NCBI GenBank assembly: GCA_042408215.1
Contig: JAYFMW010000006.1
Span: 800,001 to 864,000 of the forward strand
Reading direction: 5' to 3'
Origin: Microcoleus sp.
GTDB taxonomy: Bacteria; Cyanobacteriota; Cyanobacteriia; Cyanobacteriales; Microcoleaceae
Length of the DNA stretch: 64,000 bases
Shown here: positions 1-9,040 of the stretch, one piece after another
Layout: each line of letters starts with the position of its first letter
Numbering within the stretch: the stretch's first letter is position 1
Notes under the pieces: model-generated
Seen by the model: the letters and a program-made list of their open reading frames with translations, nothing else
What the model was told of the DNA's origin: nothing
Database searches by the model: none
Program-made: the position numbers and the translations under genes

Positions 1-447
1 TAATTCCCTGCTCCAAATTACTTCAATTTCACCTATTTTAGCTAAGTATATTTTTCGGTTTTCTCTTAGCTGAAATCCATTCTCAGTAAATCTTGCTGAT
101 TGCTTGGATCTACGTTTTTTAAATCTAGGCGACTTAACTTTTTTCCCCTTCCGTTTACCTTTACAAGAATTAAAGAAATTAGAATAAGCTCGATCTAAAT
201 GTTTTAAACTCTGTTGCAAAGGTACACTAGAAACCTCTCCTAACCATTCTTTTTCCTCAGTTTTCTTGGTTTGAGTAAGTATTCTACACAAATCACTATA
301 TGATGGTTTTTTCTCTCCTTTTATATACTGCTCTTGGCAAAAAGCTAGGGCATCGTTCCAAACTACACGACAACAACCAAACAATTTGGCTAATTGCCAT
401 TTTTGCTGGTTAGTTGGGTAGATTCGATAGCGATATCTTAATTTCAT
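1..447 (-). CDS. tnpB: RNA-guided endonuclease TnpB (N-terminal part, truncated by window edge)
   Basis: Manual translation MKLRYRYRIYPTNQQKWQLAKLFGCCRVVWNDALAF...SSVPLQQSLKHLDRAYSNFF...PRFKKR, a typical IS605 OrfB N-terminus; not in the ORF track. Confidence 0.9.
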   Translation of the reverse strand, partial: MKLRYRYRIYPTNQQKWQLAKLFGCCRVVWNDALAFCQEQYIKGEKKPSYSDLCRILTQTKKTEEKEWLGEVSSVPLQQSLKHLDRAYSNFFNSCKGKRKGKKVKSPRFKKRRSKQSARFTENGFQLRENRKIYLAKIGEIEVIWSREL

Positions 448-507
448 TGACTTAACTTGCCCTTTGAAATATACTCTAATTATAGAGTTAATCTTAGAAT
501 ATGTCAA
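447..507. promoter_or_regulatory. Overlapping face-to-face sigma70 promoters plus palindromic operator
   Basis: Minus: TTGACA(507-502)-17bp-TATAAT(484-479) toward tnpB. Plus: TTGACT(447-452)-17bp-TATACT(470-475) toward the RHH gene. Palindrome ACTCTA-ATTA-TAGAGT at 473-488. Confidence 0.75.
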
Positions 508-644
508 GAGAAAAAAAGATACAATTTAACGTGAACGAGATTGAATACCAAAGACTTAAAGAATACGCAGCAATTCTTAATGTTTCAATGGCTGAGGTCT
601 TGAGAGACTATATCAAGTCTTTAAACACCAAAAAGCCGTCCTAA
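501..644 (+). CDS. Small ribbon-helix-helix (CopG/Arc-like) DNA-binding protein, 47 aa
   Basis: MSREKKIQFNVNEIEYQRLKEYAAILNVSMAEVLRDYIKSLNTKKPS*: alternating beta strand (IQFNV), helix, S-x-A-E-V-L-R-D-Y-I second helix; below the ORF-track cutoff. Confidence 0.75.
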   Translation: MSREKKIQFNVNEIEYQRLKEYAAILNVSMAEVLRDYIKSLNTKKPS

Positions 645-706
645 AAGGACGGGGCTTTAAACCCAATTTTCTGGTAAAAAAATAGAGACAGGGAAGAAAC
701 AAAATA

Positions 707-730
707 GGGACTGGTTTTCAGGCCAGTCCC
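707..730 (-). terminator. Hairpin downstream of clpC, probable terminator
   Basis: GGGACTGG-N8-CCAGTCCC followed by T-rich sequence on the minus strand. Confidence 0.5.
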
Positions 731-801
731 ACAACATCTCGATCAGTTGTGGAGCAGGCCGGAAAGCCTGCTCTGAGCGTAGCCTAACTCACCACAGCTT
801 T

Positions 802-3267
802 TTAAAGGCTCAAAGCGAATTCAGGCAATTTTGGCTCCGACGAACCATCGGGTAACACCTTCACTACACCGTTTTCATCCACATCTACGATCGCACTTTG
901 ACCGTCTTTCAGCTTACCAGACAACATTTCCTCAGCCAGCACATCTTCCAACAACCGCATAATTGCCCGCCGTAAAGGCCTGGCACCGTAGCTAGGATTG
1001 TAGCCTTCTTTAACTAACAGTTCCTTGAACGCTTCTGTCACCGACAAAGTGATCCCCTGTTCCGTTAAGCGACTGAAAATTTCCTGCAACAAAATGTCAG
1101 CAATCTGCTTGATTTCTTCCTTATTCAACTGGCGGAAGACAATAATTTCATCCAGACGGTTGATAAATTCAGGACGGAAAAACTGTTTCAGTTCCTCGTT
1201 TACCAAACTCCGCACGCGGTTGTATTGAGAGTCTGCGGCACTTTCGGCAAACTCGAAACCGAGGCCGCCGCCGCCTTTTTCAATTACCCTCGAACCGATG
1301 TTTGAGGTCATAATTAACAGCGTATTCTTAAAGTCTACCGTCCGACCTTTAGCATCAGTCAAGCGGCCGTCTTCCAAAATTTGCAGCATCATGTTGAAGA
1401 CATCCGGGTGAGCTTTTTCGATTTCGTCGAACAAGACTACCGTGTAAGGACGACGACGGACTGCTTCTGTTAGTTGGCCGCCTTCATCGTAGCCGACGTA
1501 ACCCGGAGGCGAACCGATGAGTTTAGACACAGTGTGACGTTCCATGAATTCGGACATATCTAACCGAATCATGGCTTCTTCGGAGCCGAAGAAATAAGCC
1601 GCCAAGGCTTTTGTCAGTTCCGTTTTGCCGACGCCTGTGGGGCCGGAAAAGATGAAACTGGCGATCGGCCTGTTGGGATTTTTCAAGCCCACCCGCGCGC
1701 GACGAATGGCCCGAGAAACTGCGCTGACAGCTTCTTCTTGACCGATTAAGCGCTGGTGCAGCGTGTCTTCCATGTGCAGCAGCAATTCCGATTCCGATTC
1801 TGTCAGCTTGCTCACCGGTACACCAGTCCAATTTGCCACGATGTGGGCGATGTCTTCTTCGGTGACGATGGGAGAGGTTTTGATCTGGCTTTTGTTAATC
1901 GTAGCTGCTGCTATTTCCGCTTCAATTTCTAATTCGCGATCGCGCAATTTCCCAGCTTTCTCGAAGTCTTGCTCCCGAACCGCAGTATCTTTTTCTTTTG
2001 TTACTGCCGGCAGTTGCTTTTTGAGCTCTTTAACTTCTGGCGGAGTTTGCGAATTCAGCACGCGCACCCGGGAACCTGCTTCGTCAATTAAGTCGATCGC
2101 CTTATCGGGCAAAAATCGATCGTTAATATACCTGTCTGACAGTGTAGCCGCTGCTTCTAAAGCTGCATCGGAAATTGTCAGTCTATGGTGCTGTTCGTAG
2201 GCCGATCGCAAGCCGTACAATATTTCTATTGTTTCAGCCACACTCGGTTCTCCTACTTTCACCGGTTGGAAGCGCCGTTCTAAGGCAGCATCGCGCTCGA
2301 TGTATTTGCGGTATTCGTCTAGGGTAGTTGCTCCCACACACTGCAATTCACCTCTAGCCAGAGCCGGTTTGAGCATATTCGAGGCATCCATACTGCCTTG
2401 AATTGCCCCAGCGCCCACTAAGGTGTGAATCTCATCAATTACCAGAATGATGTTGCCGGCTGCGCGAATTTCCGCCACGATTTTCGTCAGGCGTTCCTCA
2501 AATTCACCACGGAATTTTGTACCTGCAATCAGCGAACCCATATCCAAGCTGATTACTTGTTTGTCTTCCAAAATTTCCGGGACATTTCTGTTCACAATCC
2601 GCTGGGCTAAACCTTCAGCCAGAGCAGTTTTGCCGACTCCCGGTTCGCCAACCAACACTGGATTATTCTTCGTGCGGCGGCCGAGCACTTGGATGACGCG
2701 CTCGATTTCATTTTCCCGGCCGACTACCGGATCGAGTTTACCTTCGGCGGCTAACTTCGTCAGATTTGTGCCGAACTCTTCTAAAGTCGGGGTTTTGCGA
2801 TCGGTACTTTGACGGCCTCCCGACACCGCCGCCACTTCTCCCACGGCACGAATTACCTGCGTGCGGACTCTGGAGCGATCGATTCCCAAGTTTTGCAACA
2901 CCTTCGCCGCCACCCCTTCAGCGTCCTGAATCAGCCCCAGCAGAATATGTTCGGTGCCGATGTAATTGTGGCCCAACTGCCGCGCTTCATTCAGCGCCGT
3001 CTCAAAAATCCGCTTAACGCGGGGCGTAAAAGGAATTTCCGGCGGTAGAAAACCCGATCCCCTACCGATAATATTTTCGATTTCATGCCGCGCCTCTTTC
3101 AAGTTGAGGCCCATTTCCAGTAAGACTTTTGCAGCGATGCCAGTGCCTTCGCCCACGAGTCCCAGGAGGATTTGCTCAGTGCCCACAAAATTGTGGCCGA
3201 GGCGACGCGCTTCCTCTTGGGCTAGCATTATTGCTTTAATGGCTTGTTCTGTAAAGCGTTCAAACAT
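802..3267 (-). CDS. clpC: ATP-dependent Clp protease ATP-binding subunit ClpC
   Basis: [26 protein letters not shown]lp-N repeats, two Walker A motifs ([16 protein letters not shown]), UVR coiled coil. Confidence 0.95.
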
Positions 3268-3718
3268 ATTTTTTTCCCATCCTACTGACTTGGCGAGGGC
3301 TGTATCGCTGCTGGTGAGGAGCGATTTGGAACATTACACAAATTATATCTGTAAATTTTTGTGTATTTCCTTCAATATAATCTATCGCTGCTGAGGATGT
3401 GCCGACAGTGAGGAGAGCCGAATAGTAGGGGTGTGGTTGCCGTCCGCTCTCGATCGGATATTAATTGAGAATAATAGTAGCAAAGTGGCTTGATTCCATC
3501 AATACTATCATTTTATCTATAAATAGATTCTTGTACGAGTAAATAAAGCCTGATTTTTGTTTACCTAAGTACATGGTTTAATTAAGCATATAACGGTTGC
3601 CCTGTCAAGACTTTTGACGGTTGACGGTGGTCGTGCCGTTAGCCAACAGTCAACAGCCAACAGTCAACAGCCAACAGCGACTCGAATCAGATATTTGTTC
3701 AACTCAGAGGATCGCTCC

Positions 3719-6700
3719 ATGCAATTTCGATCGCAATACCAAATCCACTCCACTCTCCACGAAGGTATCGAAACGATTATTTACCTAGGAAAAATCCCGA
3801 CCCAGCAGCCAACAACCGTACTCAAAATCCTGAAAGCTGAATATCCCACCCTCGATGCAATTACCCGCATCAAGCACGAGTACCGCATTCGGGAAAACTT
3901 AGACGCTCCTGGTCTCGTTAAAGTCCTTAGCCTCAAAACCTACAACAACCGTCTGGGGTTGCTTTTAGAAGACTTTGGTGGCGAATCAGTCGATCGACTG
4001 ATGTCCAGACAAAAGATCGAAATCATTACTTGTTTGAACATTGCGATCGCCATAACAAAAAGCTTAGAATATCTGCATATTCAAAATATTATTCATAAAG
4101 ATATTAAACCCAGCAACATTATTATCAACACCCAAACAGGAATTATTAAACTGACAGATTTTGGCATTGCTTCGCGATTGTCTAAAGAAAATCCCCAAAT
4201 CAATAATTTCAACTCGATCACCGGTACTTTTGCTTATATGTCTCCCGAACAAACCGGGAGAATGAACCGCACCCTCGACTACCGCACCGACTTCTATTCT
4301 CTCGGAGTTACCCTCTATGAAATGCTGACAGGTCAATTACCATTTCCCAGCAACGACCCCTTAGAAATAGTTTACAGTCACATAGCCTCTCAAGCAATTT
4401 TACCCCATCAGTTAAATCCAGAAATTCCACCAGCCATCTCACAAATTGTCATGAAATTGATGGCAAAAAATGCCGAAGATAGATATCAAAGCGCCCCCGG
4501 ATTATTGGCAGATTTAGAAAATTGCTTAAATCCATTAAAAACTACAGGCGAAATTGCTAATTTTACGCCCGGACACTTAGATATATTAAGTCAGTTATTG
4601 CTCCCCCAAAAATTGTACGGACGGGAAAAACAAGTCAGCGAATTACTAGCAGCATTTGAACGTGTAGCTAATCCCTGCGATGAAAATTCTTTCGTTCCCC
4701 AAATCGAACTGATGCTAGTATCTGGTTATTCAGGTATAGGCAAATCGGCCGTAGTCAACGAAATTCACAAACCCATCACCCGACAACGGGGCTATTTTAT
4801 TTCAGGTAAATTTGACCAATTCAAGCGGAATATACCTTACGCATCTTTAATTCAAGCTTTTCAATCTTTGATTCAGCAGTTACTTACAGAAACTAGCAAA
4901 AATTTACAAAAATGGAAAGATCAACTTTTAGCTGCACTAGGCAATTCGGGACAAGTAATTATTGACGTGATTCCTGAAGTAGAATTGCTGATTGGCCAAC
5001 AGCCTGCCGTCGCTGAAATTGCCCCAAAAGAAGCACAAAACCGCTTTAACAGGCTCTTCAAAGAGTTGATTCATGTATTCGCGCAACAAGAGCATCCATT
5101 AGTCATATTTCTCGATGACTTGCAGTGGGCTGATTCAGCGACATTGAAATTAATTGAATTGCTGGCAACCGACCCTGAAACTAAATATTTGTTATTGATT
5201 GGAGCCTATCGGGATAATGAAGTTAGCTCGACACATCCTTTGATTCAAACAGTAAAACATATTCAGCAACATGGAACGATCGTAAATAATGTAGTGTTGC
5301 AACCACTAGATTTAGCAGAGGTAACAAACTTCATATCTGACACATTAAATAACTCAGCATTAGTTCAAAGTTTAGCGGAGTTGCTCTGGAATAAAACAGG
5401 TGGAAATCCATTCTTTTTGACGCAATTGATCGAATCTATTTATCAAGAAAATCTCTTAAAATTTGACTTCTTTAGTGCTTCATGGCAGTGGAATATAGCA
5501 GAAATTCAAGCTATTGGGATTACAGATAAAAGTGTAGTAGAACTGTTGGCAAATCGCATTCAAAAAATGCCAGAAGTAACACAAAAAGTCTTGCAATTGG
5601 CTGCTTGTGTCGGGGACAAATTCACTCTAAATGTTCTCTCTACAGTCAATGAAAAGTCTCCCTCAGTCACCGCGACGGAACTCTGGGATGCTTTGCAAGC
5701 GGGGTTGATACTTCCTTTGAACGAAAGTTACCTTATTCCTTTACTTTTCGATGGAGAAGAAGCAGTTAATTTAACTTTCGATACTTCACGAGTAGGCTAT
5801 AAATTTTTGCACGATCGTGTCCAGCAAGCAGCTTATTCTCTGATTCCCGACAGTCACAAAAAAGCCACCCATCTCAGCATCGGTAAATTGCTCTTGGAAA
5901 GTACGCCCAAGGATAAATTAGAGGAAAATATTTTTGATATTGTTAATCAGTTGAATGTGGGGATTGACAAGATTGATATTCAAGTTAAAAAAGATGATCT
6001 GGCAGAATTAAATCTGATTGCTGGGCGTAAGGCAAAAGCTGCTAATGCTTACGAAGCTGCTGTCAAATATTTGAAGGCGGGAATGTCGTTATTAGCATCT
6101 GATAGTTGGGTTAGTAATTATGACTTGACACTCCAATTATATGTAGAAATGGCAGAAGCAGAATGTTTTAATACTAATTTTGAGCGAGCAGAAGCTTTGG
6201 CTGAAGTAGTTTTAAGTTTCGCAAAAAACCAGCTCGATCGAATGAAAGTATATCAGCTACAAATACAGATTTTTCAAGCTCAAAGCCAGATGCTTAAAGC
6301 TGTTGAAACTGGTGTAGAAGTCCTGAAAAGTCTAGGAGTAAGCTTGTTAGACGAAAACCTGGCACTGCCTAAATTGCCGAGGCTTAATGATTTAGAAAAC
6401 CTGCCAGTTATGAAAGATCCCTATCAACTGGCAGCTTTGCAAATACTGATAGCTATCTATCCTCCTGCTTATATTGCGAAACCAGAAATTGTGTCGCCGA
6501 TCGTCTTGACAATGGTCAATCTTTGTCTTAAAAACGGTCATTCAGCATTAGCCGCTTTTCCCTATACTCTTTATGGCATGATGTTGTGTGGAGTCAAAGG
6601 TGATATGGCATCTGGATATCATTCTGGAATCATTGCCTTAAAACTGTTGGAACAATTCAATGCAAGCCAACAAAAAGCCAAAGTTTATGTAATGTTTAAT

Positions 6701-9040
6701 GGTCACATAAAAATTTGGAAGGAGCCTGCTAAAAATACACTTGCTTCATTTTTAGAAGCCCTGAAATTTGGTGTACAAATAGGCGATATCGAATGGGCTA
6801 TTTATAGTGCTAAGCACTATATTGCCAATCTATCTTTTGTGGGAGAGAGTCTAGAATATGTCGAACAGCAACAAGCCATATATATGCAATTTTTGCTAAA
6901 AAATAAACACGATTTTGCCATAGGTTATGCTAAAATTTGGCAAGTAATGGCTTCAAGCTTAAGAAGCAAAACAGCAGAGCAACTACGGTTAGTTAGCGGC
7001 GGGTTGGATGAAGCTGCTGTGATGTCGCGTTGGCAGAAAGAAAATAATCGAATGTCGCTGTTTGCTGCTTATGTAGCTAAATTGATGATCCTTTACTTGT
7101 TTAAAGATTATGCTCCGGCTGTTGCCAGCGCTAAGTTAGCAGTAGAATATGCAGATGGGGCGATCGGCTTGATAACTGTTGGGGTACACAATTTCTACTA
7201 TTCGCTGGCTCTCCTCGCTCAGTACCCCCAGACAGACCAGACAGAATCTTTAGCTATTGTTGAATCCAATCAGGCAAAAATGAAGCTGTGGGCAGATCAT
7301 GCACCCATGAATTATCAGCACAAGTACGAGTTAGTCGAAGCTGAAAAAGCGCGAGTATTAGGCAACAAGCTAGAAGCAATGGATTATTATGACTTAGCTA
7401 TTAAAGGAGCGGCTGCTAACGATTACATCCAAGAAGAAGCATTAGCTTGCGAATTAGCTGGAGACTTTTATCAATCTTTGGATAAAGAAATAATTGCTAG
7501 AGCTTATCTGGATAAAGCTTATTATGCCTACATACACTGGGGAGCTATAGCCAAAGTTAAAGACTTAGAATCTCGCTATGATTATTTAGTCGATCGCAGG
7601 CGAGAAACCATGTCTAAAAATGTCACAGATGCCACTGTTATAACCACTACTAACAATAGTTATTTTCTTGATATATCAACAGTTGTCAAAGCATCTCAAG
7701 CTCTTTCCGGTGAAGTTGTTCTCAGTCGTTTGTTAGAAAAACTCCTATACATTGTTAGGGAAAATGCCGGGGCTCAGAAAATACTATTTCTTGCCAATAC
7801 AGGTCATCAATTAGCAATAGAAGCTGTACTTGTCGGTGACAAAAATGATGTTACTGTGTTGCAATCTCTGCCAATTGCCGAAGGCGGAATGTTGCCAGTT
7901 TCCTTGATTAACTATGTCGAAAGAACTCGATTTCCCTTAGTTTTAGACGATGCTAGCCTCGCCGAACAATTCAAATTTGACCCTTATATTACGCTCAATC
8001 AACCCCTATCTATCCTGGTATTGCCAATTATTCATCAAGGCAATCTTAAGGGAATATTTTATTTAGAAAATAATCTGACAAAAGGTGCTTTTACTAAGGA
8101 AAGGTTAGAAGTTTTGAAAATGCTGTCTGCACAAGCAGCTATCTCTCTAGAAAATGCCAGTTTTTATACTGTTCTGGAAACGCGAGTAGCAGAAAGAACT
8201 CAGGAATTACAAGCCACTTTATCCGAGCTACGTCGCACTCAAGTGCAGTTAATTCAAAGTGAAAAAATGTCTAGTCTAGGGCAATTAGTAGGGGGAATTG
8301 CTCACGAAATTAATAACCCGATTAATTTTATTTATGGAAATTTACATTACAGCGATCGATATGCTAAAGATTTGGTTGATTTATTGCTTCTCTACCAGAA
8401 ATATTACCCAAATACGGTGCAGGAAATAGTAGAGAAAAGTGAGGAAATAGAGTTAGAATTTTTGATAGAAGATTTTTATAAAATGATTGATTCAATGAAA
8501 GTTGGTGCGGCGAGAGTTCGCGACATTGTGCTGTCGCTGCGAAATTTTTCCCGACTTGATGAATCAGATAAAAAACGGGTTAATATCCACGAAGGTATCG
8601 ACAGCACGTTGATGATTTTGCAGAAAAAATTAAGTGCAATTACAGTGATTAAGGAGTACGCAAACTTGCCTTTTGTGAACTGCTATGCGGGAGAAATTAA
8701 TCAGGTATTTATGAATTTACTCCTGAATGCTATTGATGCTTTGTCTCACGGAATTGGGAACAAAGTTGACCCGACACAGCATCCGACAATTTGGATTTGT
8801 ACTGAAGTCGCGGCAGGAAATCAAGTGGCGATTCGGATTGCTGATAATGGTGTGGGGATGAGTTCGGAGGTGCTGGGTAAAATATTCGATCCGTTTTTTA
8901 CTACTAAACCGGTAGGTAAGGGGACTGGTTTGGGATTGTCTATCAGTTATCAAATTGTGGTTGAACAGCATGGAGGAAAGTTAATTTGCAAGTCGGAACC
9001 CGGAGAGGGAACCGAGTTTAAGATTATGCTTTTCTACTGA
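3719..9040 (+). CDS. Hybrid Ser/Thr kinase - AAA ATPase - GAF - histidine kinase
   Basis: HKDIKPSN and DFG kinase motifs, GYSGIGKS P-loop, GAF, AHEINNP H-box, [21 protein letters not shown] 3719 preferred because the upstream extension is heptamer repeat. Confidence 0.92.

Follow-up and report, generated by a model that had tools for sequence, protein, structure and literature searches.

What does a 47-aa gene do when it occupies the place of tnpA in an IS605 element and diverges from tnpB across 53 bp that hold a predicted promoter in each direction? The element lies at the start of the window (the whole 64,000-nt stretch of DNA analysed here; G000:C6:800001-864000). An earlier note had read the gene, which we call arc, as that of an autoregulatory ribbon-helix-helix (RHH) repressor controlling tnpB. 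The repressor reading finds support in the predicted RHH fold, in selection on the ORF and in conservation of a palindrome between the two genes. The novelty that it implied does not stand, as Moon et al. have already shown repression by an RHH protein, 'Arc', at a bidirectional IS605 promoter in clostridial elements, and the window locus is a further, cyanobacterial, case of the Arc-IS605 kind described in 2023-2026. The newer part is that relatives of the same Arc brake also precede protein-free mini-elements that apparently encode only structured RNA.

Table 1. Features of the element in window coordinates.
Feature	Position	Strand	Remarks
tnpB, 5' part	1..447	-	HTH_OrfB_IS605, OrfB_IS605 and TNB domains; 414 aa in full at G000:C6:799203-800447
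Predicted arc promoter, TTGACT-17-TATACT	447..475	+	Inferred start ~482
Palindrome ACTCTA-ATTA-TAGAGT, candidate operator boxes 1 and 2	473..488	.	Over both -10 boxes; conservation
Predicted tnpB promoter, perfect TTGACA-17-TATAAT	479..507	-	Inferred start ~472; -35 within arc codons 1-3
Third candidate operator box, TAGA(A/G)T, in tnpB promoter spacer	495..500	+	12 bp from box 2; conservation
47-aa Arc-like ribbon-helix-helix protein	501..644	+	Strand K5-V11, helices 13-26 and 30-42
IS605 left end with subterminal hairpin 636-652	630..673	-	Hairpin z -2.75; 154 look-alike hairpins in genome
TTAC target tetranucleotide, just outside left end	674..677	-	Similarity to other copies ends here

The element is a non-autonomous IS605 of 1,509 bp, in the order TTAC, left end, 47-aa gene, 53-bp spacer, tnpB and right end TCAA. 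Its extent had been given as 1..677; the element is indeed found there, but its left end starts at 673, 674-677 being the TTAC target outside it, and tnpB and the right end run beyond the window start to ...GTCAA, with the last base at G000:C6:799165. The 3' part of tnpB, the omega-RNA region and the right end thus fall outside the window. The left-end subterminal hairpin sits 3' of the TT-rich tetranucleotide TTAC (677-674), as expected of IS200/IS605 elements, and the right-end hairpin (z -2.43) ends in TCAA, beyond which the copies diverge. As had been noted, the 47-aa gene is the only one between the left-end hairpin and tnpB, and its TAA stop (642-644) lies inside the hairpin. The tnpB gene is intact (ATG at 447-445 on the minus strand) and its product has a canonical D-E-D catalytic site (RuvC D196, E280 and D362, with the zinc finger also present), Pfam matches above cut-off (PF12323, PF01385, PF07282) and an NF040570 score of 376.6 bits vs a cut-off of 100. 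In agreement with the claim of a non-autonomous IS, tnpA is absent in cis and Y1 tnpA is found elsewhere in the genome: among 12 tnpA-like loci, 2 share the left-end type of the window element, both without an RHH gene, and their tnpA ends in the same KPS-stop hairpin frame as the 47-aa gene. The genome holds three copies of the element that are 80–82% identical, differ in their flanks and have the operator in common, one of them with a premature stop in arc.

The AlphaFold model of the 47-aa protein (pLDDT 78.5) gave structural matches that are nearly all RHH, with PutA52 at the top (Z 6.1, rmsd 2.4, 43 aligned) and P22 Arc at Z 5.5, and Foldseek gave a TM of 0.77 to 3ft7 (E 0.26). All structural Z values lie under 8 and the Foldseek E lies above 0.001, modest values that are expected for 47 residues. 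Modelled as a homodimer, the protein scored 0.52 vs 0.00 for the best of 3 controls, with strands paired across the chains, at least 96% agreement in contacts between runs and a pLDDT of at least 78 (the mark for this score was reached by 20/30 solved pairs and 1/23 single chains); as RHH dimers have already been solved, the model is a likeness and not evidence of binding. Pfam (E ≤ 0.05) recognised RHH_1 in 20/46 and a NikA-like domain in 44/46 homologs. The query alone stayed below the Pfam cut-offs (NikA-like E 0.013), its NCBIfam match to a RelB antitoxin was weak (E 0.0025, far below the cut-off), and no RHH turned up when it was compared by sequence with solved structures. A word search returned 48 proteins including the query (60–100% identity), several annotated 'ribbon-helix-helix protein, CopG family'; cluster representatives yielded 274 relatives at E ≤ 0.001, and the A1 profile had matches in 38/401 cyanobacterial genomes. 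Between the window gene and 30 intact homologs, pN was 0.16 and pS 0.87, giving a ratio of 0.18 that involves saturated synonymous sites and is biased down because the homologs were chosen by protein similarity. The gene is broken or start-altered in 7/38 homologous loci. The claims of an RHH fold and of a conserved ORF under selection are both borne out, and sequence and model together indicate that the small protein is a real ribbon-helix-helix.

Both promoters are where the earlier reading had placed them. The perfect TTGACA-17-TATAAT on the minus strand (507-479) has a -35 that overlaps the ATG of arc by 2 nt, the TTGACT-17-TATACT on the plus strand (447-475) has a -35 that overlaps the tnpB ATG by 1 nt, and the spacer between the genes spans 448-500. 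Start sites were placed from the usual distance between the -10 box and the start. With predicted starts at ~482 (+) and ~472 (-), the transcripts would diverge without overlap, and 'face-to-face' is therefore the wrong term for what is an overlapping divergent pair. The perfect tnpB promoter is the sole one in the 64-kb window vs 0.03 expected, and 3/100 shuffles contained a perfect promoter. The weaker promoter, that of arc, is not significant alone, because a promoter scan of 1-3000 at a threshold of 9 of 12 found 3 sites vs 3.6 expected. Across 38 homologous loci, its -10 positions are 76–97% conserved, and its -35 is kept in 10/14 loci that face tnpB, 3/17 that face an RNA region and 0/7 others. 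Where the tnpB -35 runs through arc, codon 2 ends in A in 29/31 intact homologs and the Arg3 codon is AGA or AGG in 31/31, vs 23/31 for Arg35, which indicates that the -35 inside codons 1-3 is under a constraint of its own.

The palindrome between the genes can be read directly in the sequence and overlaps both -10 boxes, as had been claimed. It is not significant alone, because 403/5000 shuffles of the spacer contain a 6-bp inverted repeat; its support is conservation. For this we used 38 loci, no two of them identical, whose strand reads K-(I/M)-Q-F-N (65 matches minus 7 truncated or partial ones gave 58, from which duplicates, loci with <60 nt upstream, loci with N and other strand types were removed). 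Across them the palindrome is kept, together with a third TAGA box and the -35 in codons 1-3, and positions 470-488 are conserved at 55–100%, vs 34–66% for 448-469. Outside both -10 hexamers, C476 (97%), T477 (95%) and G485 (82%) are conserved, as is A486, and in the third box T495 is kept in 71% and A496, G497 and A498 in 84% each. Conservation of C476, T477, G485, A486 and the box at 495-500 therefore indicates three TAGA-type sites, the last of which had been overlooked.

The operator also goes with the DNA-reading strand of the protein. Between one and three TAGA-type boxes lie within 35 nt before the start in 34/34 distinct upstream regions with a K-x-Q-F-N strand and in 4/35 with other strands (one of the 4 being a frameshifted member of the same family), counts that are support and not a statistical test because kin are not independent. 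Several other strand types carry palindromes of their own. In these upstream regions the operator changes along with the beta-strand, a link that could be partly shared descent, again since kin are not independent. According to the available part of PMC12645479, P22 Arc reads a TAGA box via Gln9, Asn11 and Arg13; its Gln9 and Asn11 resemble Q8 and N10 in the strand of the 47-aa protein, which also has K6. Perfect copies of the palindrome number 4 in the genome vs 0.17 expected, at 2 arc elements, 1 arc-less tnpB of another clade and 1 further site. In the arc-less tnpB (L177:484-1850; G000:C6:~420283-421650, minus), the palindrome lies 12 nt from the ATG, the same distance as for arc in the window, which makes this gene a candidate trans target or captured promoter.

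How close this comes to known systems can be judged against three of them. Arc-like genes beside tnpB were first noted in 10.1101/2023.11.20.567912 (as far as its available text goes), and Arc in arc+tnpB and arc+tnpA+tnpB IS605 elements was described by Moon, Zedaveinyte, Wiegand and Sternberg (bioRxiv 10.64898/2026.09.24.754181). By ChIP-seq, reporters and mutants in clostridial elements, Moon et al. found that Arc binds the bidirectional promoter and represses the tnpB promoter; elements with arc and tnpB only were tested too, autoregulation of arc was proposed only, and certain homologs lacked specific binding (10.64898/2026.09.24.754181). Their Arc is a small RHH protein (some ≤50 aa) inside IS605, divergent from tnpB across a bidirectional promoter with a motif on the promoter boxes. 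The window Arc is likewise a stand-alone RHH under 200 aa inside the element, divergent from tnpB, with repeated motifs on the promoter boxes. Moon et al. place 362 proteins in a transposon-associated clade. The DNA-contact residues differ (N5/N7/T9 in the homolog that they modelled, K6/Q8/N10 here), as do the hosts, the main-text examples being clostridial ('cyano' occurs 0 times there, though the supplements may list cyanobacterial members) and the window element cyanobacterial. Moon et al. also include arc+tnpA+tnpB elements, whereas in the family of the window Arc tnpA was found in 0/58 loci.

The cyanobacterial type V-K CAST proteins Arc_1 and Arc_2 (Ziemann et al. 2023, PMC9938897; 2025, PMC12416283; available text) are RHH proteins of 53-72 aa whose genes lie upstream of, and reversed to, a TnpB/Cas12-family effector gene, as in the window; the likeness is one of arrangement. 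They belong to a Tn7-like transposon with cas12k, tracrRNA and array, and in those parts of the two papers repression was tested for CvkR (MerR type) and predicted for Arc. The partner in the window is an IS605 TnpB and not cas12k, and we do not assign the locus to this type. Archaeal RHH/MazE-TnpB loci (Altae-Tran et al. 2023, PMC10691335; available part) also have a small RHH gene beside tnpB, but are described there as non-mobile, with tnpB downstream of the RHH gene and a rearranged catalytic site, and are proposed to be toxin-antitoxin pairs. This type was rejected too for the window locus, where the genes are divergent, the D-E-D site is canonical and the IS ends are intact.

We propose that the element is a non-autonomous IS605 that would depend for its movement on a Y1 TnpA supplied in trans from another locus of the genome, its tnpA slot being taken by an Arc-type repressor cassette. 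RNA polymerase would start from either of the two overlapping divergent promoters, and Arc dimers would sit on two or all three of the TAGA-type boxes (473-478, inverted; 483-488; 495-500). As these boxes lie over both -10s and in the tnpB promoter spacer, both directions would be blocked, and since arc is itself under the operator, the result would be a negative feedback circuit: on entry into a naive cell, a new copy would first produce TnpB and omega-RNA in a burst and then settle at a low steady level. Sister copies that carry this operator may be controlled by Arc in trans as well; the operator that the three genome copies share (one with a broken arc) and the arc-less tnpB with a perfect palindrome bear on this. 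We are fairly confident in this picture, from Arc dimers lying over the two -10 boxes and the spacer of the tnpB promoter to repression of both genes and an effect in trans on sister copies. What we observe at the locus and its relatives is the sequence anatomy, the likeness of fold, selection, conservation of the operator and its change with the beta-strand. Binding, repression, autoregulation, start sites and the burst are what we infer, from the work of Moon et al. 2026 and from the general biology of RHH proteins.

Other roles for the protein have to be weighed against repression of tnpB. It could bind the operator but mainly repress its own promoter, or activate the tnpB side by excluding polymerase from the arc side, with TnpB not lowered. 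In favour of this, box 1 and the arc -10 overlap, each promoter sterically excludes the other and certain RHH proteins are activators (Moon et al., introduction); yet box 2 overlaps the tnpB -10, box 3 lies within its spacer and the homolog tested by Moon et al. repressed the tnpB promoter, which leaves such a role unlikely. We give still less credence to a NikA/MobC-like transposition accessory that aids TnpA at the left end, with the promoter palindrome incidental. The conserved boxes are located at the promoter, the homologs adjoin several unrelated left-end types and most elements in the genome are without an RHH gene, all of which count against it, even though Pfam and NCBIfam match the family best to mobilisation proteins (NikA-like and MbpA) and the gene always adjoins the left end.

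An antitoxin or inhibitor that binds TnpB itself, as proposed for archaeal RHH/MazE-TnpB, has a precedent in the complex modelled by Altae-Tran et al. 2023 (PMC10691335, available part) and an echo in the RelB match mentioned above. This reading is weakened because many homologs face RNA regions without tnpB: 17/38 close homologs keep protein and operator with no tnpB in cis. The protein moreover has no C-terminal extension past the RHH, its gene is divergent and not co-transcribed with tnpB, and the TnpB catalytic site is canonical; we regard direct inhibition as very improbable. That the ORF arose by chance, or survives without selection as a remnant of a decayed tnpA, seems scarcely credible given its pN/pS of 0.18 (with saturated synonymous sites), its predicted RHH fold, its 274 relatives and the lack of tnpA similarity in all 58 loci, despite its end in the KPS-stop hairpin frame of tnpA and the broken state of certain copies.

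Among the 38 loci, arc faces tnpB in 14 and a non-coding region of 300-360 nt without tnpB in 17; the other 7 face neither or are truncated, the classes being hand-assigned. The right end is visible in 10 of the 17 RNA-facing loci, the others being cut by contig ends or interrupted. In an Arc tree (44 columns, poorly resolved), the starred branches force 2 changes between RNA and tnpB payloads and the bootstrap trees 5-8; we read this as at least 2 payload changes, probably 5-8.

The non-coding payload regions fall into several families. In family A (23 full-length sequences), 64 pairs are predicted, 41 with two-sided changes, and 95.5% of cells are paired; 0/500 shuffles scored as high and slid controls reached 28–44%, in a comparison that favours the structure because this alignment also served to derive it. 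The case for RNA structure rests on covariation, as the 5' parts mostly fold weakly when taken one sequence at a time (z +0.8 to -3.3). The last ~135 nt of family A resemble the 3' ends of one tnpB clade, and neither blastx nor blastn links the 5' part to any of the 224 tnpB loci of the genome, the neighbouring mini-element apart. On that ground a deleted tnpB was rejected as the origin of the payload. Rfam gave no family at gathering score in the payload RNAs (20 loci; 17 loci), the best weak match in 7 loci being RAGATH-18 (E 2.3) on the 3' part of one; with Rfam below the gathering score and an adjacent nuclease ORF absent, IscB/HEARO RNA and group I introns were rejected as well.

A model of the family A 5' domain has matches in 69/150 genomes of the order, up to 14 per genome (E-values rough) and mostly without Arc. 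Among the 30 best loci (2 of them used in building the model), 7 have a clear RHH gene upstream and 1 a broken one, with at least 4 strand types; among 20 weaker, hand-chosen loci, none scored for RHH and one retains an arc start. As far as the contigs reach, 0/50 of these loci have tnpB or tnpA inside the element. Standalone omega-RNAs (PMC10691335, introduction) and PATEs with omega-RNAs (Meers et al., 10.1101/2023.03.14.532601, available part) consist of IS605 ends and an omega-RNA without a protein gene and are used in trans. Family A has this anatomy, with IS605 ends, no tnpA or tnpB inside and an omega-RNA-like 3' part at the right end, and differs from PATEs, as described in that part, in having its own promoter, a covarying 5' domain of ~140-190 nt that is absent from the tnpB loci of the genome and, in a minority, its own Arc. 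By sequence, it resembles a standalone guide RNA that carries a further domain at its 5' end. This domain may extend the scaffold, or may serve processing or stability in place of the trimming by TnpB of its own mRNA (processing of mRNA by TnpB: PMC10278001, available part).

We lean slightly towards a wider reading, in which arc and the two-way promoter form a portable cassette swapped between IS605 payloads. One common payload would be a promoter-driven structured RNA of 300-430 nt that joins the 3' module of a TnpB omega-RNA to a covarying 5' domain not described before. The arc+RNA mini-transposons would then amount to standalone guide-RNA genes under repressor control, with both TnpA and TnpB borrowed in trans. 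A literature search that covered few subscription journals found no description of arc+RNA-only elements or of the family A RNA, and the main text of Moon et al. does not mention Arc before an RNA-only element, though their supplementary tables may list such loci; in the available part of a 2026 review (PMC13565253), the terms 'Arc' and 'standalone' are absent.

The finding at the window locus extends the 2026 Arc result to a cyanobacterial lineage and offers a clean, testable candidate operator: three TAGA boxes that a K-Q-N strand would read, for which nature also supplies variants of the strand-operator pair. The RNA side result matters more than the Arc finding, if true. A repressor under selection in RNA-only elements would then imply that the guide RNA is the thing rationed, the purpose of standalone omega-RNAs would become directly testable in a widespread, multi-copy family of standalone TnpB guides that have a promoter and a 5' domain of their own, and such RNAs could supply natural guide scaffolds.

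Several individual payload loci may be recorded here. The genome has one family A element without arc and one arc+RNA element of another family. The former is a mini-element (L087:1377-1780; G000:C28:~257876-258278, minus) with left end, promoter, an RNA of ~310-330 nt and right end, as also seen in L127-L176, most copies having no protein gene; the latter belongs to family D (L090, G000:C8:~297040-297610; also L120 and L125), with arc and a different non-coding payload of ~360 nt between IS605 ends, without tnpB. Further unrelated payloads of 300-430 nt face an Arc-like gene in families B (L029, L062, L064, L071), C (L043, L066, L099), E (L106, L109) and F (L108, L117; this family does not end in TCAA) and in L116. 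G000:C10:~148000-148430 contains arc, the promoter and, adjoining a tRNA-like sequence, a truncated family A RNA that lacks its 3' part and the right end. In several Nostocales (L036-L039), close homologs with the operator, whose IS ends and tnpB are not in view, lie directly upstream of a conserved 425-aa host gene and are possibly domesticated.

RHH genes of other kinds occupy the tnpA slot as well. A broader profile gave 13 matches above 14 bits in this genome; 10 RHH ORFs end at a left-end hairpin, with differing strands, and 9 of them face tnpB. At least 7 other RHH-like lineages were seen in this slot with different TnpB clades (G000 C3:136796, C17:9115, C20:612647, C6:442922, C6:410304, C5:427415, C6:120904 and C6:785352), their kinship resting on the HMM scan; this variety suggests repeated recruitment or exchange. 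The IS605 load of the genome is very high (154 left-end-like hairpins and about 224 tnpB-like loci); many elements are tiny, with just some 70 bp between their two ends, and there are left ends that a short repeat interrupts.

As for the insertion itself, the element lies downstream of a clpC-like gene (window 802-3267; name read from domains). Apparently the same insertion is found in one other genome of the genus, split across two contigs, and in another assembly, where the small protein at this site is identical, tnpB is frameshifted (L022; also L052 and L053). At the clpC loci of relatives, the far-side gene follows 0.1-1.2 kb after clpC in 6/18, shorter than the element length. No base-exact empty junction was found: in relatives the intergenic DNA is too divergent, contigs of 4 runs contained no junction spanning the element, and a 14-nt flank search gave chance-level matches only. 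A tblastn search against plasmids gave no match. Pieces of the element occur in three metatranscriptome runs, with one contig spanning the spacer and arc; these contigs carry no information on strand, start or level and could derive from DNA. Two GC-rich inverted repeats, one of them terminator-like for clpC, lie at window 707-768, between clpC and the left end, and are shared only with the nearest genome; window 3614-9040 encodes a 1808-aa protein that by eye resembles a Ser/Thr kinase-AAA-GAF-histidine kinase hybrid.
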